From Escherichia coli (GTDB taxonomy: Bacteria; Pseudomonadota; Gammaproteobacteria; Enterobacterales; Enterobacteriaceae), in NCBI RefSeq assembly GCF_044324785.1, contig NZ_CP172127.1: 64,000 nucleotides of DNA; one strand, 5' to 3'. The notes beneath the pieces are model-generated. The model had not been told where the DNA came from, did no database searches, and saw nothing but the letters and a program-made list of their open reading frames with translations. Each line of letters opens with the position of its first letter. Position 1 is the stretch's first letter. Positions 3,015 to 52,634 of the stretch are shown piece by piece. The position numbers and the translations under genes were made by a program.

Positions 3015-3671
3015 ATGAAACAGCCTGCGCCCGTTTATCAGAGAATTGCGGGTCATCAATGGCGACATATCTGGCTTTCAGGCGATATACACGGTTGTCT
3101 TGAGCAGTTGCGCCGCAAATTATGGCATTGTCGTTTTGATCCGTGGCGAGATTTACTTATCTCAGTGGGAGATGTTATCGATCGTGGGCCGCAAAGTTTA
3201 CGTTGTCTGCAGTTACTGGAACAACATTGGGTTTGTGCGGTAAGAGGCAATCATGAACAGATGGCGATGGATGCGCTGACATCTCAGCAGATGTCTTTGT
3301 GGTTGATGAATGGCGGCGACTGGTTTATTGCGCTGGCAGATAATCAACAGAAACAAGCGAAAACGGCGCTGGAAAAATGTCAGCATTTGCCCTTTATTCT
3401 TGAAGTACACAGTCGCACCGGCAAACATGTTATTGCTCATGCCGATTATCCAGATGATGTTTATGAATGGCAAAAGGACGTTGATTTGCATCAGGTCTTG
3501 TGGAGCCGCTCGCGATTAGGTGAACGCCCAAAAGGGCAGGGAATTAAAGGTGCTGATCATTTCTGGTTTGGTCATACACCGTTGCGACATCGCGTGGATA
3601 TTGGCAACCTGCATTATATTGATACCGGTGCTGTCTTTGGGGGCGAACTGACTCTTGTGCAATTGCAATAA
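3015..3671 (+). CDS. pphA: Serine/threonine protein phosphatase 1 (PrpA)
   Basis: Track ORF 3012..3671 (219 aa) with the second Met giving 218 aa, MKQPAPVYQRIAGHQWRHIWLSGDIHG; calcineurin-like phosphoesterase signature GDxxDRG present (GDVIDRG). Confidence 0.9.
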   Translation: MKQPAPVYQRIAGHQWRHIWLSGDIHGCLEQLRRKLWHCRFDPWRDLLISVGDVIDRGPQSLRCLQLLEQHWVCAVRGNHEQMAMDALTSQQMSLWLMNGGDWFIALADNQQKQAKTALEKCQHLPFILEVHSRTGKHVIAHADYPDDVYEWQKDVDLHQVLWSRSRLGERPKGQGIKGADHFWFGHTPLRHRVDIGNLHYIDTGAVFGGELTLVQLQ

Positions 3672-3863
3672 TTAAAAATCACCGTACTCCTGTGCTGGTC
3701 GCCAGAAACCATCAATAAAATCCTCGATTGGAAAACAACCGCCATGGCGGATCCGTTGATCGCTCATAGAATAAAGACACTGCTGTTCCGTGTTGTAGAC
3801 ATCCACAACAATATCTTCACAACCGCCATCCAGGTAGCAAACAAAAAGTACCAGCGCGAACAT
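3672..3863 (-). CDS. yebW: Small protein YebW (63 aa)
   Basis: Track ORF 3672..3947 trimmed to internal Met: MFALVLFVCYLDGGCEDIVVDVYNTEQQCLYSMSDQRIRHGGCFPIEDFIDGFWRPAQEYGDF. Confidence 0.8.
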   Translation of the reverse strand: MFALVLFVCYLDGGCEDIVVDVYNTEQQCLYSMSDQRIRHGGCFPIEDFIDGFWRPAQEYGDF

Positions 3864-4321: not shown

Positions 4322-5761
4322 TCAGGCGTTACCGGTAAAAAGTTTCCCATCTCGCACCAGTTCACGCGGGTAGCTGTTTTTCAGTCGCGAACCAATTCGT
4401 TTGGCTAAACCAATCGGCTGATGCTGGAAAGTAACTAATACATCATCCGCTACTGGCGCGGCTTGCGGGTAAACATCGCGCCCGCGATACCACTCTTCCG
4501 CTTCCTGCGGTGTCAGTTCAAAAGCGTTCACATTGTCGGGGGAGGCAAGGGCAATAACCGCTTCATGCTGCCAGCGATAACCTTTATTATGCGTTTCGGC
4601 AAGTTTAATCCCCAACCGAGAAAATCGGACTTTACCGATCAGGGCTTCAATGCCTACCGGGAACAACCACAGTTCTTTGTCGCGTTGCCAGAGTCGCAGG
4701 TTTCCATCCCAGTTTAAGCCAACACTTGCAGCCGCCTGACGAATTTGTCCGGCTTCGCGATCTTTTACCGGGCTAAACGGAAAATTGCCCACTTTGTATT
4801 TTGGGGCGGGTAACGCAGGAATCGCCTTGGTTTTACGCAGACGAGCAACGAAGAAGCCTTCGCAGTCGTAAATTTGTGGGAAAACATGCAAAAAACCTTC
4901 TTCGGTCAACGCCTTGTTTGCACCAGGGAAGAGATCGCCAAGCGGTAAAAACTCTACTGCGTCGGGGTAAGTCTCTTTCAGCCACAGGCAAACAGCTTCG
5001 TTTTCTTCCTTGTTTAAGGTACAGGTTGAGTAGACCAGCGTACCGCCAGTACGTAAAGCGTGAAAGGCACTGTCGATCAGTTCTCGCTGGGTCGCCGCAA
5101 TTTCCTGATTGCTTTCCGGTGACCAGTTTTTCAGTGCGTCGGGATCTTTGCGCACTACGCCTTCGCCAGAGCAGGGGGCGTCCAGCAGAATGGCATCGAA
5201 CATTTCTGGTAACGCCGCACCAAAGACGCGACCATCAAAATGAGTCAGAGAGACGTTACGGATACCGCAGCGACTGATATTGGCATGTAACACTTTTACC
5301 CGGCTGGCAGAAAACTCATTGGCAAGGATCGCCCCTTCGTTATTCATCCTCGCGGCAATTTGCGTCGTTTTTGAGCCTGGCGCGGCAGCGACATCCATCA
5401 CCCGCTGTGGTGCATTACCGTCAGCAAACAAGGCGGCGACGGGCAACATTGAACTGGCTTCCTGAATATAAAACAGGCCACTTAAATGCTCGGCGGTACT
5501 ACCCAATGGCAAGGCATCTTCATCGTCGCGTTCAATCCAGAAACCTTCTTCACACCACGGAATTGGCGTAAGCGTCCAGCCATAAGGGGCGGTTAATTGC
5601 AGGAAATCAGCAACGGAGATTTTCAGCGTATTAACGCGAATACTGCGGCGCAACGGGCGCTGACAGGCGGCAAGAAAATCATCAAATGAGAGCGTCGAAG
5701 GCATCGCTTCGCGCATTTGTGTCAGAAAGGCGTCCGGGAAATAAACGGTGTGTTGGGCCAC
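4322..5761 (-). CDS. rsmF: 16S rRNA m5C1407 methyltransferase RsmF
   Basis: 481-aa track ORF; annotated product is 479 aa, so probable GTG start two codons in; SAM-methyltransferase motifs ([20 protein letters not shown]) visible. Confidence 0.9.
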
Positions 5762-18923: not shown

Positions 18924-19733
18924 ATGTCGTTTTCCTGTCCACTTTGCCATCAGCCTCTTTCGCGTGAAAAAAACAGCTATATCTGTCCCCAGCGACATCA
19001 GTTTGATATGGCGAAAGAAGGGTATGTCAATCTGCTGCCCGTTCAGCATAAACGGTCTCGTGATCCGGGCGACAGCGCGGAAATGATGCAAGCACGCCGC
19101 GCATTCTTAGATGCCGGACATTATCAGCCGCTGCGTGATGCAATTGTCGCTCAACTGCGGGAACGGCTTGATGAAAAGGCCACAGCGGTGCTGGATATTG
19201 GCTGTGGTGAAGGGTATTACACACACGCATTTGCCGATGCGCTGCCCGAAATCACCACGTTTGGCCTGGATGTCTCGAAGGTAGCGATAAAAGCGGCGGC
19301 GAAACGCTATCCGCAGGTCACTTTTTGTGTTGCTTCCAGCCACCGTTTGCCGTTTTCCGATACCAGTATGGACGCCATAATACGTATTTACGCGCCGTGT
19401 AAAGCAGAAGAATTAGCGCGAGTAGTGAAGCCTGGCGGTTGGGTCATTACTGCCACGCCGGGACCGCGACATTTGATGGAGCTGAAGGGGCTGATTTACA
19501 ATGAAGTACATCTTCATGCACCACATGCAGAACAACTGGAAGGTTTTACATTACAGCAGAGTGGTGAGTTGTGTTATCCGATGCGTCTTCGCGGTGACGA
19601 AGCCGTCGCATTATTGCAGATGACGCCGTTTGCCTGGCGTGCGAAGTCAGAAGTCTGGCAAACACTGGCAGCAAAAGAAGTGTTCGACTGCCAGACGGAC
19701 TTTAATATTCACCTCTGGCAGCGTTCTTATTAA
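18924..19733 (+). CDS. rlmA: 23S rRNA m1G745 methyltransferase RlmA
   Basis: 269-aa ORF with N-terminal Cys4 zinc motif (CPLCHQ...CPQRH) and SAM-binding DIGCGEG motif. Confidence 0.9.
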
Positions 19734-22964: not shown

Positions 22965-23936
22965 TTACTTATCGATTTTGCTGATCAGATCCATCATTTT
23001 CAGTTTCGGATCGGTGGAAACCTTACGGACTTCCAGCTCAATACCGCGCGCATTCAGTTTCTTGAACGCCTCGATATCTTTTTCATCAACCGAAACCGCG
23101 TTATTCACCTGGGTTTTACCCTGACGGAATGCCATACCACCGACGTTAACAGAGGTGATTTTCACGCCGCCTTCAACGAGACGCTCTACATCTGTTGGGT
23201 TGGTAAATAACAGCATTACACGTTCGCCAGCATATTTCGGGTTGTTGTAGACGCGAATCATTTTGGCAACATCAACTACGTGTGCTGTTACGCCCGGAGG
23301 TGCAACCTGGGTGAGCAGTGTCTTACGAACGGTATCCGCAGCCACTTCATCACTAACAACAATAATACGGGAGACATTGGTTTCTTTGGTCCAGCGGGTG
23401 GCGACCTGACCGTGAATCAGACGGTCGTCGATACGCGCAAGGCCAATAACCATGTAGTCGTTTGGCCCCATTGGTTTTGCCGGAGTTGGAGCCGCTTTTG
23501 GTGCTGCGGCAGCGGGTGCTGGCGCAGCTTTTTCAACCGGTTTGGCTTTCAGTGCTTTCACGCCTTCACGGCCTGTTTCTACTGCCAGCGCAACCAGTTC
23601 ATCAAAGCTTGGGTCATCATCACGGGCCATTAACGTTTCCACGAGCATTGGAATGTTAACGCCTGCAATGACTTCATAATGCTCTTTGTCGACGACAATG
23701 CGGCTGGCAGCATTGAACGGGCTGCCTCCCCATGTATCAACGAGAAACAGCACGCCTTTAGTGGTGTCGAGTTTTGCCAACTGAGCGTTGTACTTTTCAA
23801 TCAGCGTTTCGGCATTTTCACCTGGAACGAAATCGATCCAGCCGACGTTTTCCTGCTCGCCTAACAGCATTTCTGCCGTTTTAAGCAACTGCTCTGCAGC
23901 CCAACCATGTGTGCCTATAACAATAGCAATGGTCAC
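22965..23936 (-). CDS. manX: PTS mannose-specific EIIAB component
   Basis: 323-aa ORF MTIAIVIGTHGWAAEQLLKTAEMLLGEQENVGWIDF... with Ala/Pro-rich hinge (KAAPAPAAAAPKAAPTPAKP) between the IIA and IIB domains. Confidence 0.9.
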   Translation of the reverse strand: MTIAIVIGTHGWAAEQLLKTAEMLLGEQENVGWIDFVPGENAETLIEKYNAQLAKLDTTKGVLFLVDTWGGSPFNAASRIVVDKEHYEVIAGVNIPMLVETLMARDDDPSFDELVALAVETGREGVKALKAKPVEKAAPAPAAAAPKAAPTPAKPMGPNDYMVIGLARIDDRLIHGQVATRWTKETNVSRIIVVSDEVAADTVRKTLLTQVAPPGVTAHVVDVAKMIRVYNNPKYAGERVMLLFTNPTDVERLVEGGVKITSVNVGGMAFRQGKTQVNNAVSVDEKDIEAFKKLNARGIELEVRKVSTDPKLKMMDLISKIDK

Positions 23937-24050
23937 TTGCTACCTCCTTTATTATCGTTAACACCTCAACGTGCCAGATGTATTTTTGAATCGTCGTCCA
24001 CAATCGAATCGATTCAGATAAGGGCTACAACCAAAAACCCCTGCGTTTCG

Positions 24051-24101
24051 CGATTTATTTTAGATATCGAAAAAATTATTTTATGTGATGAAGATCCGTA
24101 A
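24051..24101. promoter_or_regulatory. Candidate Mlc/NagC-type operator and CRP-like half-site in the manX-yoaE divergent region
   Basis: TTATTTTAGATATCGAAAAAATTATTTTA (A/T arms around a central CG) followed by TGTGATGAAGATCCGTA; manX is a known Mlc/CRP target. Pattern-based only. Confidence 0.3.
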
Positions 24102-24398
24102 TTTAACTTTCGATTAGCAGAAATTTCGAAAGGTAAAATATCCTTGTCACATTCGTTTGCAAAGGAAGGTAAATCTTTGCCAAATCAGAGGCGTCTCTGA
24201 TATGTTTAACTCCCGTTTAACAACCATGGAGTATAGGGCAGTAGCCCGCAGTATGGATCGTCACCGACGTCATTTCAGCATCAGGCCTTTTAACGCCTGC
24301 CTTTCTGGCACTCTATGCCGCACCTTTCGTTTGCATTTTGTCGTTACGCCTGCATTATTTCTGGCGTCGAATAGCTATTCCTTAAGCAGGAGCTTGTC

Positions 24399-25955
24399 AT
24401 GGAATTCTTAATGGACCCCTCAATTTGGGCGGGGCTACTCACGCTTGTTGTTCTCGAAATTGTGCTGGGTATCGATAACCTGGTCTTCATCGCCATTCTT
24501 GCTGACAAACTGCCGCCAAAACAACGCGATAAAGCGCGTTTGCTGGGATTATCACTGGCGCTGATTATGCGTCTGGGGCTGCTGTCGCTGATTTCATGGA
24601 TGGTCACGCTGACCAAACCGCTATTTACCGTCATGGATTTCTCCTTCTCCGGACGTGACCTGATTATGTTGTTCGGGGGAATATTCTTGCTGTTCAAAGC
24701 AACAACCGAACTGCATGAACGGCTGGAAAACCGCGATCATGATTCCGGTCACGGTAAAGGCTACGCCAGTTTCTGGGTGGTCGTCACACAGATCGTCATC
24801 CTTGACGCCGTCTTCTCGTTGGATGCGGTAATTACGGCAGTAGGGATGGTTAACCATCTGCCAGTGATGATGGCGGCGGTAGTGATTGCGATGGCGGTTA
24901 TGCTGCTGGCATCGAAACCGCTGACGCGATTTGTTAACCAGCATCCAACGGTGGTGGTGCTCTGTCTGAGCTTCCTGTTAATGATTGGTCTGAGTCTGGT
25001 GGCAGAAGGTTTCGGTTTCCACATTCCGAAAGGTTACCTGTATGCCGCGATTGGCTTCTCGATCATCATCGAAGTGTTTAACCAGATTGCGCGTCGCAAC
25101 TTTATTCGTCACCAGTCGACTTTGCCGCTGCGAGCGCGTACTGCCGATGCCATCCTGCGTTTGATGGGCGGGAAACGTCAGGCCAATGTTCAGCACGATG
25201 CCGATAACCCGATGCCGATGCCGATCCCGGAAGGTGCATTTGCCGAAGAAGAACGTTACATGATTAACGGCGTACTCACGCTGGCGTCGCGTTCTCTGCG
25301 CGGGATCATGACGCCGCGCGGTGAAATAAGCTGGGTTGACGCTAATCTCGGGGTCGATGAAATCCGCGAGCAGCTGCTCTCCTCACCGCACAGCCTGTTC
25401 CCGGTATGTCGCGGTGAACTGGATGAAATCATCGGAATCGTACGTGCTAAAGAACTGCTGGTGGCGCTGGAAGAGGGCGTTGATGTGGCGGCGATTGCTT
25501 CGGCGTCTCCGGCGATTATCGTCCCTGAAACCCTCGATCCGATCAACCTGCTGGGCGTGCTGCGTCGTGCTCGCGGGAGCTTTGTTATCGTGACCAACGA
25601 GTTTGGTGTGGTACAAGGCTTGGTCACGCCGCTGGATGTGCTGGAAGCCATTGCGGGTGAATTCCCGGACGCTGACGAAACGCCGGAAATCATTACTGAT
25701 GGTGACGGCTGGCTGGTAAAAGGCGGTACAGATTTGCATGCCTTGCAGCAGGCGCTTGATGTTGAGCACCTTGCCGATGACGATGATATCGCGACGGTCG
25801 CGGGCCTCGTGATCTCGGCAAATGGTCACATTCCCCGTGTGGGCGATGTGATTGATGTAGGTCCACTGCATATCACCATCATTGAAGCCAATGATTATCG
25901 TGTTGATCTGGTTCGCATTGTTAAAGAGCAACCGGCGCACGATGAAGATGAGTAA
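24399..25955 (+). CDS. yoaE: TerC-family membrane protein with CBS/CorC C-terminal domains, YoaE
   Basis: 518-aa ORF: N-terminal polytopic TerC-like half, C-terminal soluble CBS-pair and transporter-associated region. Confidence 0.9.
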
Positions 25956-25958
25956 GCG

Positions 25959-27557
25959 TTAACGTAACGGCATAACGGGCGTGATATGTCCATTATGCCG
26001 GGCGGGCGGCGGTTGGCTGCCCGCCAGCCATTTGGGAAAATCACGTAGCGGCATCGGCTGTGCGTACAAATACCCTTGCAAAATATGCACGCCATGACGG
26101 CGCAAATACTTCGCCTGTTCTTGCGTTTCCACGCCCTCCGCCACCAGTTCAATATTCAGTCTTTGCCCCAGCGCGATGATGATATCGGTCACCGTCGAGT
26201 TAACCGCGTCAGAACCTATAGCTGCGGTAAATGACTTATCAATTTTCAGCACGTCAGGACGTAATGTTTCAAGCCAGGAAAACGAGCTGTTGCCGGTGCC
26301 GAAGTCATCAATCGCCAGTTTGACGTTTTTACGATGCAGCTCGCGGGCAATCCGATAATCCACATCCAGTAAGGCATCGCGTTCGGTGATTTCGAGGATC
26401 AGTTGCTGAATCGGGTGAGCGCTAAACCAGTACTGATTGAGATCTTTTATCAGCACACCACGGCGAAAATGGCTGGGTGCGACGTTAATGCCAACATGAA
26501 ACTGACTACTCATAGGGAAAACATGGCGCTGACGAATGGTTTCTGCCATCACATAGCGGGTCAGTGGCACAATTAAATGATGTTCTTCCGCGATAGGAAT
26601 AAACACATCCGGTGAAATCCAGCCCTGACGCGGATTGTTCCAGCGCAGCAAAATCTCTACACCAATACATTGCTGGCTGCGCGCATTAAGCAAAGGCTGA
26701 CAGAACAATTCGAACTCATGTTGCGCCAGGCCCAGATTGATTTCACGGGAAAAACTCATCCGGTAAGCGGTCGCCAGCCAGGCGATATAGCCCACAAGTA
26801 AACTTAGAAGCACCGCCAGCGGTAATTGTGTTGGAAGATAGTGCCATGCCAGCGCCGTAGCCCCCGGACCATTAACGTTAATGGTAAAAGGAAAGCGTTG
26901 CGAAGAAACCTGATAGTTTTCATTGTCTTCAGGTTGCGGAAGGGTATCTACCAGCCCATTACCATAGAGCAAATGCCGATTGTCCACCGTCAGGCTGGCG
27001 CTACTGATTTGCGGCAGTTGTGGCTCAAGCAGCATTGCCGCCAGTAAGTCGATGTTAATCATCTCCATGACCCCAGCATTGCTACTGCCCGCTGCTGGCG
27101 TCCATTGAATCAAAACCGGACTGCCTTTAATCAGGGCACGGTCGATCGTCAGGCGTAAAAGTGGTTGCGGTGCAGGAAGTTCAGCCAGAATGTCCACGAC
27201 GGGCACATTGCGATAACCAAAAATGCTGGAGCAATAAAGTGTGCCGTCTTGCACCAGGCCAATGGATCGCACAGTTTGGAGTTTTGCCGCCTGTTTACGT
27301 AATGGCAAATGGGCGACAGAGCAGGGCAGACCAATTAGCGGAAGTAAGACTTCGCTACCTGCCTGTAGGGGAAGCAGTACTTTATCTAATTCCTCTACAG
27401 CGTGATTGGCGAATTGTACTACCCGTTGTTGATTTAAGTTACGCTGTGAAATAAATCGCACGCTCAGGGTCGAAGCGAGCGTAACGAGTGCGCAAATCGT
27501 ACAAACAATCATTCGATTACGGCGATAGGTTTTAATGATCCGTTGTGCTTTTTGCAT
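25959..27557 (-). CDS. pdeD: c-di-GMP phosphodiesterase PdeD (YoaD), CSS-motif sensor plus EAL domain
   Basis: Track ORF 25959..27587 trimmed to MQKAQRIIKTYRRNRMIVCTI... (532 aa); EAL-domain motifs EITER, DDFGTG and QGYLY visible. Confidence 0.85.
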   Translation of the reverse strand: MQKAQRIIKTYRRNRMIVCTICALVTLASTLSVRFISQRNLNQQRVVQFANHAVEELDKVLLPLQAGSEVLLPLIGLPCSVAHLPLRKQAAKLQTVRSIGLVQDGTLYCSSIFGYRNVPVVDILAELPAPQPLLRLTIDRALIKGSPVLIQWTPAAGSSNAGVMEMINIDLLAAMLLEPQLPQISSASLTVDNRHLLYGNGLVDTLPQPEDNENYQVSSQRFPFTINVNGPGATALAWHYLPTQLPLAVLLSLLVGYIAWLATAYRMSFSREINLGLAQHEFELFCQPLLNARSQQCIGVEILLRWNNPRQGWISPDVFIPIAEEHHLIVPLTRYVMAETIRQRHVFPMSSQFHVGINVAPSHFRRGVLIKDLNQYWFSAHPIQQLILEITERDALLDVDYRIARELHRKNVKLAIDDFGTGNSSFSWLETLRPDVLKIDKSFTAAIGSDAVNSTVTDIIIALGQRLNIELVAEGVETQEQAKYLRRHGVHILQGYLYAQPMPLRDFPKWLAGSQPPPARHNGHITPVMPLR

Positions 27558-27687
27558 GCGGGCCACCCTGTAAGCGTATGGCGACAAACGCCTGACGCAA
27601 CAGTGGAAGTGTAGTGGGGAAAATTACAGCAGACGAGAAAGCGGGGATAAATTCGCCCATCCGTTGCAGATGGGCGAGAAAGAAGTA

Positions 27688-29052
27688 TTAGTCACACTGG
27701 ACTTTGATTGCCAGACCACCGCGTGAGGTTTCGCGGTATTTGGCGTTCATGTCCTTACCGGTTTCGTACATCGTTTCGATAACCTTATCTAGCGAGACGC
27801 GCGGTGCGCTGGTGCGGCGCAGAGCCATCCGTGCGGCGTTAATCGCCTTCACAGAGGCAATAGCATTACGCTCAATGCACGGCACCTGAACCTGCCCTGC
27901 AACAGGGTCACAGGTCAGACCGAGGTTGTGCTCCATGCCAATTTCCGCCGCCACACAAACCTGTTCCGGGCTACCGCCCAACAGCTCGGCAAGGCCCGCA
28001 GCAGCCATTGAACAGGCAACACCCACTTCGCCCTGGCAACCAACTTCCGCACCGGAAATAGAGGCGTTCATTTTATACAATGCACCAATCGCGCCCGCTG
28101 CCATAAAGTAACGGGTATAGATGTCCGGGCTGACCGATTCAATAAAGTGGTCATAGTAAGCCAGCACTGCCGGAACGATACCGCAGGCACCGTTGGTTGG
28201 CGCAGTTACCACACGACCACCGGCGGCGTTTTCTTCGTTAACTGCCAGCGCAAACATGTTTACCCAGTCAATGACATTCATCGGATCGTTAGACAGTTTA
28301 TCGCTGGAAACCAGCATCCGGCGCAGGGCAGACGCACGACGCGGCACGCGCAGCGGGCCTGGCAGTACGCCTTCGGTGTTCATCCCGCGATCGATACATG
28401 CCTGCATGGTTTGCCAGACATGCGCGAAATACTCGTCGATCTCTTTCTTGCTGTGCAGCGCCAGTTCATTCTGCATAGCGAGACCAGACAGCGAATAGCC
28501 GGTTTCGTTACAGTACGCGAGCAGTTCGGTGGCAGATTTGAACGGATACGGCACGCTCACTTCGTTGGCGGCATCCTGACCAAAGTGTTCTTCATCGACG
28601 ATAAAACCGCCGCCGATGGAATAATAAGTTTTGCTGTAGACGACTTCATCGCCATTATAGGCGTGGATTTGCATACCGTTTTCATGCAGCGGCAGGTTAC
28701 CGTTATGAAAACGCATCCCGTTGTCGCGCGGGAAATCCACTTCATGCCGTCCCTGTGCCAGCAGCAGACGTTCGCGCTCTTCTACGTCGCGAATAAAACC
28801 GGGAATACTGTCGATATCCACGGTGGCAGGTTCGTTACCTGCAAGACCCATAATAATGGCGATATCGGTGTGGTGGCCTTTACCCGTCAGCGACAGTGAA
28901 CCATAAACGTCCACGGCAACGCGAGTAACGCTATCCAGTAAGCCTTTTTCGACCAGATCATCGACGAACTGTTTACCCGCCTTCATAGGCCCTACGGTAT
29001 GGGAAGATGAGGGACCAATCCCCACCTTAAACATGTCGAATAGACTAATCAC
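27688..29052 (-). CDS. sdaA: L-serine dehydratase 1
   Basis: 454-aa [32 protein letters not shown]... recognised as SdaA. Confidence 0.9.
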
Positions 29053-50631: not shown

Positions 50632-51453
50632 ATGATGCATAGGTTGAATCTCAATGGCTATGAACCCGACCGACACCATGAAGCCGCGGTCGCATTTTGT
50701 ATTCACGCCGGAACGGATGAGTTAACCAGTCCTGTACATCAGCACCGCAAAGGGCAGCTGATACTGGCGCTACATGGTGCAATTACCTGTACGGTGGAAA
50801 ATGCTTTGTGGATGGTGCCGCCGCAATATGCGGTTTGGATACCGGGAGGGGTGGAACATAGCAATCAAGTGACAGCTAACGCTGAACTCTGTTTTCTGTT
50901 TATCGAACCCAGCGCAGTGACAATGCCGACAACCTGTTGCACATTGAAAATATCGCCCTTATGCCGGGAATTAATTTTAACCCTGGCAAACAGGACGACG
51001 ACTCAGCGTGCTGAGCCGATGACCCGCAGATTAATTCAGGTCCTGTTTGATGAACTCCCTCAGCAGCCACAACAACAGCTGCACCTACCCGTTTCTTCTC
51101 ATCCTAAAATTCGCGCGATGGTGGAGATGATGGCGAAAGAGCCCGTCGAGTGGGGGTCATTGGGGCAATGGGCTCGCTTTTTTGCGATGAGTGAACGCAA
51201 TCTTGCCCGACTGATAGTGAAAGAGACGGGGTTGAGTTTTCGCCAGTGGCGTCAGCAGTTACAGCTGATTATGGCGCTTCAGGGATTAGTGAAAGGCGAT
51301 ACTGTACAGAAAGTTGCTCATACGCTGGGGTATGATTCAACAACGGCCTTTATTACTATGTTTAAGAAAGGCCTGGGGCAAACGCCAGGCCGATATATTG
51401 CGGGATTAACTACTGTTTCCCCACAATCAGCGAAACCAGACCCGCGGCAATAA
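50632..51453 (+). CDS. nimR: AraC-family transcriptional regulator NimR (YeaM)
   Basis: 273-aa ORF with N-terminal cupin-like domain and C-terminal AraC helix-turn-helix; 3' end overlaps yeaL by 44 nt. Confidence 0.85.
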
Positions 51454-52025: not shown

Positions 52026-52130
52026 ATGAACGATCAAATGTTCGTCGAGACTCTGATTATCACGTCATCGTTTTTTGCCATTGCTGTTGTGCTGGTTTTG
52101 TCCGTTCTTCTTATCGAACGGACAGGCTAG
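52026..52130 (+). CDS. yoaI: Small membrane protein YoaI (34 aa)
   Basis: Hand translation [34 protein letters not shown]; its stop abuts the yeaK stop on the opposite strand. Confidence 0.7.
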
Positions 52131-52634
52131 TTACGCAGTGCGGCGGAAATTGACCAGTTCTGGTTGCGCAATGCGCAAATAATCCGCGGTTTTCAAAATA
52201 ACGGATTTATCCAGCATGCCTGCATTGAAGGCGATTTCATCAAATCGTTCGAAGAGTAGGGGATCGGCAACCAGTTTGAGTTTTGGATGGAAGCTGAAAG
52301 GGGGGATCGCGCCGAAGACACAGCCTGTGAGTTCATCGACTTCCGCCGGGCTGGCCAACGAAGCGCGTAATCCGCCTATATGGCTGGCGAGTTGGCTCAG
52401 ATCGGCCTGTTGATCGGCAGCGAGGATCGCCAGAACATGTTGATTTACACCATTGCCTTTGACTTTACATACCAGTGCCTTAGCCCCCTGGCCTAAAGCG
52501 GTGCCACGAATTTCTGACACCGCTTCACATTTACCTACCGCTTCATGGGTAACGACGCGGAAGTCAGCACCTTCTTGTGATAATAAAGCGATTAACCGCT
52601 GATGCGTCACGCTTCCTTTAGCCATTTCAGTCAT
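52131..52634 (-). CDS. yeaK: YbaK/ProX-family aminoacyl-tRNA deacylase YeaK
   Basis: 167-aa ORF MTEMAKGSVTHQRLIALLSQEGADFRVVTHEAVGKCEAVSEIRGTALGQGAKALVCK... Confidence 0.85.
   Translation of the reverse strand: MTEMAKGSVTHQRLIALLSQEGADFRVVTHEAVGKCEAVSEIRGTALGQGAKALVCKVKGNGVNQHVLAILAADQQADLSQLASHIGGLRASLASPAEVDELTGCVFGAIPPFSFHPKLKLVADPLLFERFDEIAFNAGMLDKSVILKTADYLRIAQPELVNFRRTA

Follow-up and report, generated by a model that had tools for sequence, protein, structure and literature searches.

The convergent genes yoaE and pdeD of Escherichia coli form an arrangement that is real, ordinary and largely known; what is new, in a modest way, is that the last codons of pdeD double as hairpin-forming sequence in the 3' untranslated region (3'UTR) of yoaE. 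Read directly, the junction within the window (the whole stretch of 64,000 nt that was analyzed) is ...GAT GAG TAA GCG TTA ACG..., where TTA is TAA on the minus strand. An earlier note on this DNA described the two genes as converging with their stops 3 nt apart, and this is borne out by the sequence, by the list of open reading frames (24399..25955 on the plus strand, 518 aa; 25959..27587 on the minus strand, 542 aa when counted from an upstream TTG, or 532 aa from the annotated ATG at 27557), and by RefSeq, where the same gap is found in the annotations of both E. coli 19KM1831 and MG1655.

Table 1. Features at the junction of yoaE and pdeD (positions in the window).
Feature	Position	Strand	Remarks
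yoaE (mgpA) CDS	24399..25955	+	518 aa; Pfam domains TerC, CBS and CorC_HlyC; stop TAA at 25953-25955
Spacer GCG	25956..25958		3 nt separating both stop codons; identical gap in RefSeq
pdeD (yoaD) CDS	25959..27557	-	532 aa; Pfam domains CSS-motif and EAL (phosphodiesterase); stop at 25959-25961
PdeD post-EAL tail	25962..26054	-	codons 502-532, 31 aa; bears HP1 and HP2; EAL match ends at residue 501
HP1 stem-loop, yoaE-sense RNA	25968..26000	+	-19.1 kcal/mol; compensatory changes, conserved
HP2 stem-loop, G+C-rich	26001..26025	+	10 bp; -24.1 kcal/mol
Primary yoaE mRNA 3' terminus, published	26026..26035	+	TRS Supplementary Data 2-4, PMC10687069
rut-like stretch (C>G), yoaE-sense RNA	26060..26215	+	C/G 1.5-2.1; +105 to +260
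Highest Rho score, yoaE strand	26207	+	MG1655 1899777, antisense to pdeD; Adams et al. 2021, Supplementary file 2

Abutting stop codons and their distribution

Abutting convergent stops are routine in E. coli. A gap of at most 3 nt separates 5 of the 12 convergent pairs in the window and 7 of the 18 convergent pairs of CDSs in MG1655 from 1.86 to 1.96 Mb. Of 5426 complete E. coli genomes, 5420 carry the yoaE-pdeD junction itself at an identity of at least 98%, and its near-abutting layout is kept in most of 80 Enterobacteriaceae species. In E. coli FDAARGOS_944 an IS element sits within the spacer and so sets the two genes apart. One might suppose that pdeD was recently extended, in E. coli specifically, through an old intergenic terminator, but this idea was rejected, because the tail of PdeD and a gap of 0 to 6 nt are common to most of the 80 species.

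Some related genera solve the same problem by means of a canonical intergenic terminator plus a PdeD that lacks the tail. In most loci from Klebsiella, Raoultella and Kluyvera, PdeD alignments end at about residue 512 to 522, before the tail, and in the lineages where the gap widens to 33 to 57 nt, the gap holds a canonical hairpin and T-tract oriented for yoaE, with the PdeD alignment again falling short of the tail.

Hairpins in the tail of pdeD

The earlier note also held that no terminator lies between the genes. This is true of the 3-nt spacer, as a scan for consensus terminators found no site at the junction, but it overlooks two stem-loops, HP1 and HP2, that span 13 to 70 nt downstream of the yoaE stop, within the tail codons of pdeD, and beyond which lies the published yoaE 3' terminus. 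The 3' arm of HP2 plus AGCCA corresponds to the PdeD codons for W-L-A-G and the 5' arm to those for P-P-P-A. With the allele of MG1655 (T at 25976), HP1 reaches -23.5 kcal/mol, compared with -19.1 in the window. The 80-nt yoaE 3'UTR as a whole folds at -43.8 kcal/mol (z = -3.9), a value equaled by none of 200 shuffled sequences. The minus strand of the tail region also folds well (-34.8 kcal/mol, z = -3.8 against shuffles), and the RNA beyond the pdeD stop on that strand showed no notable structure (z = 0.18). A scan of positions 23500 to 28500 against Rfam 15 matched no family, the one match, elsewhere in the region, being at chance level (E = 0.76).

The hairpins are maintained beyond what the protein requires, through selection at synonymous positions in the tail of PdeD. 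In all 44 species considered, the tail in its native form folds more stably than its synonymous recodings do (mean z = -2.3). Against permutations of synonymous codons within the tail, the native form likewise wins in every one of 28 species (mean z = -2.5; within the lowest 5% in 20 of the 28), although these species are kin and therefore amount to fewer than 28 independent trials. The permutations dispose of the idea that the hairpins are a by-product of the PPPA and WLAG amino-acid motifs. Pairing amounts to 73.8% at the hairpins, compared with 34 to 53% in controls slid along the sequence, and the covariation score is 0.196 rather than 0.07 to 0.12; the register of pairing in HP2 shifts among lineages. 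Conservation at synonymous sites is slightly raised in the tail (0.55 vs 0.48 in the EAL domain), a weak sign if taken alone, and amino-acid identity in the tail (0.69) is like that in the remainder of PdeD. Since selection acts on synonymous sites of the tail, the same 93 nt function as 3'UTR of yoaE and as codons of pdeD.

Thermodynamics is silent on which strand HP1 and HP2 serve. The plus strand is more stable by 5.8 kcal/mol, and this asymmetry was considered as a means of assigning the hairpins to yoaE. It proved uninformative: the excess is -5.76 in the native sequences and -5.83 in the recoded ones (z = -2.45 for the plus strand and -2.29 for the minus strand), and the asymmetry is compositional, since the recoded controls carry an equal bias.

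The end of the yoaE transcript

The mapped 3' end of yoaE mRNA lies 7 to 10 nt past HP2 and 77 nt inside pdeD, giving a 3'UTR of 81 nt. The published peak covers MG1655 1899949-1899958 (PMC10687069); it is called primary in two supplementary tables, whose dominant positions (26035 and 26032 in the window) are 3 nt apart, and in each table it is significant in only two of three replicates. Coverage of the E. coli yoaE 3'UTR is 3 to 6 times that of the CDS (PMC10687069). A terminus 7 to 10 nt past a strong stem also fits the geometry of intrinsic termination.

Farther downstream, reads in the region with the highest Rho score fell from 51 upstream to 9 downstream without bicyclomycin and were nearly equal, 103 and 100, with it (Adams et al. 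2021). The score (5.5, p = 1.2e-6) peaks at +252 from the yoaE stop, a position that is coarse because the score was computed over 800-nt windows. Bicyclomycin is able to switch on new antisense promoters, a caveat for this Rho region. Among the curated Term-seq 3' ends in Adams et al. 2021, none lies at 18996xx-19001xx, and the supplements of SMRT-Cappable-seq have no entry for yoaE/pdeD. The assertion of the earlier note that each transcript must terminate inside the opposing gene is thus upheld for yoaE, by the mapped 3' end, by the Rho signal about 250 nt into pdeD, and by the map of excludons discussed below; for pdeD no 3' end is on record. Ends mapped ahead of the opposing gene, the finding named there as contrary evidence, were not encountered, the yoaE end lying inside pdeD.

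It is rather probable that Rho ends yoaE transcription inside pdeD and that the mRNA is then trimmed back to HP2, which protects it. According to this model, transcription of yoaE would pass its own stop into pdeD antisense, copying HP1, HP2, and then a stretch rich in C and poor in G. Judging from the published bicyclomycin data and base composition, Rho may terminate within roughly the next 100 to 250 nt. By analogy with the cases of Dar and Sorek (2018), 3'-to-5' exonucleases would then trim the RNA to HP2, yielding the steady-state end 7 to 10 nt after it. Since the end falls just after HP2, the mature mRNA overlaps only about the last 26 codons of pdeD. For its part, pdeD, having no equivalent structure past its stop, is probably terminated by Rho in untranslated yoaE antisense.

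Alternatively, HP2, with or without HP1, might be a weak, non-canonical intrinsic terminator, with release at AGCCAUU^UGG^ and Rho mopping up the read-through. We think this unlikely, although 3' ends 7 to 10 nt past a stem of -24 kcal/mol would suit it, and HP2 is a G+C-rich stem-loop of the sort that intrinsic terminators require. The U-rich tract, however, is missing: the tail that follows HP2, AGCCAUUUGG, contains only three U, with no run longer than 3, and the scan for consensus terminators found no intrinsic terminator at HP2. A tract of T does follow the equivalent hairpin directly in the loci L028, L054 and L069, as well as in Franconibacter, where a canonical terminator oriented for yoaE lies inside the pdeD tail, and the Klebsiella clade has its canonical terminator at the equivalent place. 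Across genera, however, the U tract after HP2 is not conserved, because the codons of PdeD dictate the residues there, which change along with the encoded amino acid. Furthermore, bicyclomycin makes coverage downstream roughly match that upstream, a result that speaks against efficient termination without a factor.

The earlier note raised the possibility that the two genes antagonize each other. Perhaps the junction is a working convergent excludon or collision terminator, in which the hairpins cause RNA polymerases to pause and collision, RNase III acting on a 77-nt duplex, or both produce reciprocal antagonism. The pair is among 165 convergent excludons found in at least 50% of 58 transcriptomes (PMC12288877), a model of hairpins as pause sites combined with collision exists for convergent pairs in E. 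coli (10.1101/2022.10.23.513370), and the tail region folds well on either strand (z = -3.9 and -3.8). Nonetheless, we judge this account quite improbable. The literature yielded no results on reciprocal expression, RNase III or collision for yoaE/pdeD. Read counts for both genes are low in the published data (51 and 18 per 800 nt in Adams et al. 2021; about 0.05 for the yoaE CDS in PMC10687069), so collisions should be rare there. The hairpins cannot terminate pdeD, since they are located upstream of its stop, and the Rho signal on the yoaE strand sits poorly with a class of collision terminators described as Rho-independent.

Very improbable is the notion that the hairpins serve pdeD (by protecting the 3' end of its mRNA, pacing translation of the tail, or through a function of the tail peptide), with the yoaE end a by-product: the pdeD stop does lie 7 to 9 nt past HP1 on the minus strand, that strand folds far better than its shuffles, recoding gives nearly equal z for the two strands, and the tail is conserved in amino acids much like the rest of PdeD, but ribosomes would unwind hairpins within the reading frame, the sole 3' end to have been mapped belongs to the yoaE strand, most PdeD alignments from Klebsiella, Raoultella and Kluyvera lack the tail while the terminator there is oriented for yoaE only, and G-U cells outnumber A-C cells on the plus strand by 137 to 41, compared with about 1.6 to 1 expected from composition (the cells not being independent).

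Known systems and possible consequences

The preferred account, termination by Rho followed by trimming to HP2, has a precedent in the Rho-dependent transcripts that carry a stable stem-loop with no U tract behind it and a rut site immediately downstream (Dar and Sorek, NAR 2018, PMC6061677). The yoaE transcript resembles these in ending just past such a stem-loop, in having a C-rich, rut-like stretch next, and in its bicyclomycin-sensitive read-through. It differs in that the structure and the rut-like region lie in the opposing CDS rather than in an intergenic 3'UTR.

The pair is already listed as a convergent excludon in the E. coli map made with ExcludonFinder (NAR 2025, PMC12288877). As that class demands, yoaE and pdeD are neighbors that meet tail to tail from opposite strands, with a tiny spacer, and published data place one transcript, that of yoaE, antisense within the other gene. 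Unlike the class, the defining reciprocal repression is only a candidate here, and the overlap at steady state takes in no more than the final 77 nt of pdeD. Any cross-talk between yoaE and pdeD would be of the convergent-excludon type, confined to this short overlap.

In 2019, Ju et al. reportedly described bidirectional terminators lying between genes that converge in E. coli. The likeness to such terminators (Wang et al., bioRxiv 10.1101/2022.10.23.513370) extends to convergent genes with a hairpin element where the two units meet. In that class, however, one Rho-independent element between the stops ends both transcripts, while the spacer of 3 nt between yoaE and pdeD holds no intergenic element and both hairpins precede the stop codon of pdeD.

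A possible counterpart is StyR-291 (GenBank FJ746409), a candidate npcRNA of 61 nt from Salmonella Typhi (Chinni et al. 2010, PMC2943607), which Iwadate and Slauch (2025, PMC12421838) place beyond mgpA/yoaE and in antisense orientation to the pdeD 3' end. Judged by description, its position and strand agree with the 3'UTR containing HP1 and HP2. It was negative by Northern blot, the RNA was without effect in complementation, and it has no Rfam family. Predictions of sRNAs based on RIL-seq have no entry for yoaE/pdeD.

For annotation, the lesson is that missing room for a terminator is not the same as a missing terminator-like element: the 3' structure of yoaE is embedded in the final codons of its neighbor, where it constrains synonymous sites. 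One might go further, though the odds are poor, and regard the PdeD tail as a translated 3'UTR kept mainly for the sake of the yoaE hairpins, with a stable fragment like StyR-291 acting in cis as an antisense RNA against the final 26 codons of pdeD mRNA, so that induction of yoaE by Mg2+ or envelope stress would lead to less c-di-GMP phosphodiesterase. If the overlap does regulate pdeD, then the control of YoaE (MgpA) by Mg2+ and envelope stress would be tied to c-di-GMP signaling.

The yoaE-pdeD junction

Genes yoaE and pdeD meet tail to tail at ...GAT GAG TAA GCG TTA ACG..., read directly from the sequence. The 3-nt gap recurs in the RefSeq annotation of strain 19KM1831 and of MG1655 (pdeD 1898427..1900025, yoaE 1900029..1901585), and the junction was found in 5420 of 5426 complete E. 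coli genomes. Sequence, ORFs and RefSeq thus bear out the earlier note on the convergence and spacing of the two genes, and Pfam bears out its description of their products as a TerC-like protein and a CSS-EAL phosphodiesterase: YoaE carries TerC, CBS and CorC_HlyC domains, and PdeD a CSS motif and an EAL domain whose match ends at residue 501. K-12 has five phosphodiesterases with a CSS domain, PdeD among them. Salmonella YoaE, now named MgpA, guards against excess Mg2+ (Iwadate & Slauch 2025, PMC12421838).

Coordinates of the junction, the hairpins and the abutting or overlapping convergent pairs (gaps in the last column are for MG1655 1.86-1.96 Mb)
Feature	Coordinates	Strand	Description	Basis	MG1655 gap (nt)
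yoaE ORF	24399..25955	+	518 aa	ORF listing	
yoaE stop	25953-25955	+	TAA	sequence reading	
Spacer	25956-25958		GCG, between both stops	sequence reading	
pdeD stop	25959-25961	-	TTA, reverse complement of stop	sequence reading	
pdeD ORF	25959..27587	-	annotated 532-aa start at 27557	ORF listing	
HP1	25968-26000	+	-19.1 kcal/mol	RNA folding	
HP2	26001-26025	+	10-bp G+C-rich stem, -24.1 kcal/mol	RNA folding	
pdeD-yoaE					3
yebW-pphA	3669-3674		gap 0		0
mntP-rlmA	19730-19733		4-nt overlap		-4
yeaL-nimR	51410-51453		44-nt overlap		-44
yeaK-yoaI	52128-52133		gap 0		0
exoX-ptrB					-4
yebB-ruvC					1

The abutting layout is not unusual. The two stops lie within 3 nt of each other, or the genes overlap, in 7 of the 18 convergent CDS pairs of MG1655 1.86-1.96 Mb and in 5 of 12 within the window. 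ExcludonFinder (NAR 2025, PMC12288877) counts pdeD-yoaE as one of the 165 convergent excludons that recur in half or more of 58 MG1655 transcriptomes, and yebW-pphA, yeaL-nimR and yeaK-yoaI are likewise in its list. Judging by comparison of loci fetched with YoaE from 80 Enterobacteriaceae species, the layout is old: 77 have a convergent pdeD homologue after yoaE, with a gap of 0-6 nt in most genera and a few overlaps of 4-24 nt.

Two E. coli strains carry lesions here. In FDAARGOS_944 (NZ_CP065613.1, locus L085, 3257-4775), an IS110-like element of the ISSso6 family, its transposase frameshifted, sits exactly at TAA^GCG in the spacer, leaving both ORFs intact and making a natural mutant in which yoaE is parted from the hairpins by about 1.5 kb. 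In SCU-118 (NZ_CP051716.1, locus L086), whose matching stretch falls 4 nt short of the window's, the annotation makes pdeD a pseudogene with a frameshift; the 3-nt junction is unaltered. Directly upstream of yoaE, a small annotated ORF, yoaL (52 codons, 24253-24411, + strand), overlaps its start by 13 nt and may represent a leader peptide or a coupling arrangement. The best full-length E. coli match to 24000-28000 is only 98.9% identical over 4 kb, but over the 501 nt spanning the junction one strain is fully identical, which suggests a mosaic or a less-sampled lineage.

Structure and selection in the pdeD tail

Strong structure marks the yoaE-sense RNA directly after the yoaE stop. From the spacer to 26035, 80 nt in all, the predicted fold has an energy of -43.8 kcal/mol (z = -3.9), which none of 200 shuffled sequences equalled; pdeD-sense RNA past the pdeD stop, inside yoaE, has no comparable structure (z = 0.18). 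Both hairpins lie within pdeD codons 502-532, the 31-aa tail past the end of the EAL match. The earlier note's statement that no terminator lies between the genes holds for the 3-nt spacer but overlooks this 3'-end-associated structure, 13-70 nt past the yoaE stop. Position 25976 is C in the window and T in MG1655, E. albertii and FDAARGOS_944; the C allele breaks one HP1 pair (with T, HP1 folds at -23.5 kcal/mol) and makes the PdeD tail read ...TPVMPLR in place of ...TPIMPLR.

The hairpins are under selection beyond that on the protein sequence of PdeD. Two stricter folding tests held the amino-acid sequence constant. In all 44 species whose tails were recoded by the codon usage of the gene concerned, the native sequence was the better folder (mean z = -2.3); permuting synonymous codons within the tail, which leaves codon composition identical, gave that outcome in 28 of 28 (mean z = -2.5; among the lowest 5% in 20). 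The species in these counts are related and the trials hence not independent, although stem sequences do differ between genera. Also, the arms change in compensating fashion across genera, for example GGCGGGC/GCCCGCC, GGCGGAG/CTCCGCC, GGCAGGTGGC/GCCACCTGCC, GAGGGGGA/TCCCCCTC. When 43 species were aligned with MAFFT and the E. coli structure was imposed, 73.8% of cells were paired, versus 34-53% in controls with partners slid by 1-3 columns, and the covariation score was 0.196 versus 0.07-0.12. Since the pairing register of HP2 moves by a few nt between lineages, these figures probably understate structural conservation. Synonymous-site identity is only slightly raised in the tail (0.55 versus 0.48 in the EAL domain), which fits upkeep of the hairpins by compensation rather than strict conservation.

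The yoaE 3' end and the strand served by the hairpins

A TRS study (Nat Commun 2023, PMC10687069) reports a 'Primary' yoaE 3' terminus at MG1655 1899949-1899958, minus strand; two of its tables put the dominant position at 1899949 and 1899952 respectively. Because the window and MG1655 differ by one base in 25900-26260, these termini map to 26035 and 26032, 7-10 nt past HP2 and 77 nt into pdeD. The same study gives a 3'UTR of 81 nt with a predicted local fold of -29.5 kcal/mol, a longest U run of 3, and coverage of 0.16-0.31 versus about 0.05 in the CDS. The curated Term-seq list of Adams et al. (2021, eLife, PMC7815308) contains no 3' end at the junction.

Thermodynamics is unable to assign the hairpins to either strand: the + strand fold is more stable by 5.8 kcal/mol on average, but recoded controls share the bias, and z is about equal on the two strands. 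The excess of G-U over A-C cells (137 to 41, where composition predicts about 1.6:1) is only suggestive. Larger gaps, however, measuring 33-38 nt in Klebsiella, 38-57 nt in some Raoultella and 57 nt in an Enterobacter sp., are filled by a canonical hairpin and T-tract oriented for yoaE only, with the PdeD alignment ending at residue ~512-522, and Franconibacter, with a gap of 5 nt, has a canonical yoaE-oriented terminator within the pdeD tail. Comparative anatomy and the published 3'-end mapping together point to yoaE as the gene served.

In Franconibacter helveticus (locus L068), the yoaE-oriented terminator occupies 5576-5604 (+), and the 3' end of yoaE contains a terminator-like site of its own on the pdeD strand, at 5538-5552 (-). 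Both genes may thus harbour a terminator for their partner, or the site within yoaE may be fortuitous. In Klebsiella pneumoniae ATCC 13883 (locus L041, ~2530-2580), CTCACT-like hexamer repeats sit just inside the stop of the pdeD homologue, adjoining the intergenic terminator.

Much of this was already known: the junction is annotated, the pair catalogued as an excludon and the yoaE 3' end mapped, and an RNA candidate has been described at the equivalent position in Salmonella, StyR-291, a 61-nt cDNA negative by northern blot (Chinni et al. 2010, PMC2943607), which Iwadate & Slauch (2025, PMC12421838) place past mgpA/yoaE and antisense to the 3' end of pdeD, and which had no effect in their complementation test. 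The conserved double role of 93 nt, which encode the PdeD tail and form the yoaE 3'UTR hairpins, appears undescribed in the literature searched, as does the alternative canonical terminator of the Klebsiella clade. Both are fresh examples of a type already known, not a new type.

Routes of termination

On the yoaE strand, Adams et al. (2021, PMC7815308) report a Rho-dependent region that scores highest (5.5, p = 1.2e-6) at MG1655 1899777, which is 26207 in the window, +252 from the yoaE stop. Reads upstream and downstream number 51/9 without bicyclomycin and 103/100 with it. By base composition, C exceeds G in the yoaE-sense RNA from +105 to +260 (C/G up to 2.1). For Rho-dependent E. coli transcripts, Dar & Sorek (2018) described a stable stem-loop lacking a U tract, 3' ends a few nt past it, C-rich sequence immediately downstream, and sensitivity to bicyclomycin. 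Since yoaE shows the same combination, we favor, as the probable course, that its transcription runs into pdeD, that Rho ends the transcript within about 100-250 nt (a step for which the published data are coarse), and that exonucleases would then cut the RNA back to HP2.

The main rival, a weak intrinsic terminator at HP2, fits the 7-10-nt spacing to the 3' end, but it lacks a U tract, and none is conserved; we consider this reading unlikely. An excludon of the collision or RNase III type, with real reciprocal antagonism, is doubtful, given the low read counts for both genes in the data consulted. That the hairpins function for pdeD itself is very improbable, even though the - strand version also folds well and the pdeD stop lies 7-9 nt past its hairpin.

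The earlier note's claim that each transcript must end inside the opposing gene is upheld for yoaE by the mapped 3' end. For pdeD we can only infer as much: C>G stretches past its stop (+1-78, +157-416 and +430-572) make Rho-dependent termination inside yoaE the likely route. With structure 13-70 nt past the yoaE stop, steady-state intrusion into pdeD is short; the mutual antagonism that the earlier note suggested is no more than a possibility.

Coverage in the pdeD sense is very low in LB. At the other end of pdeD, a published Rho-dependent region (score 9.6, p = 3.6e-21) peaks 17 nt into the gene, near 27541 (-), MG1655 1898443 (+), so read-through from sdaA seems to be Rho-terminated at the pdeD 5' end.
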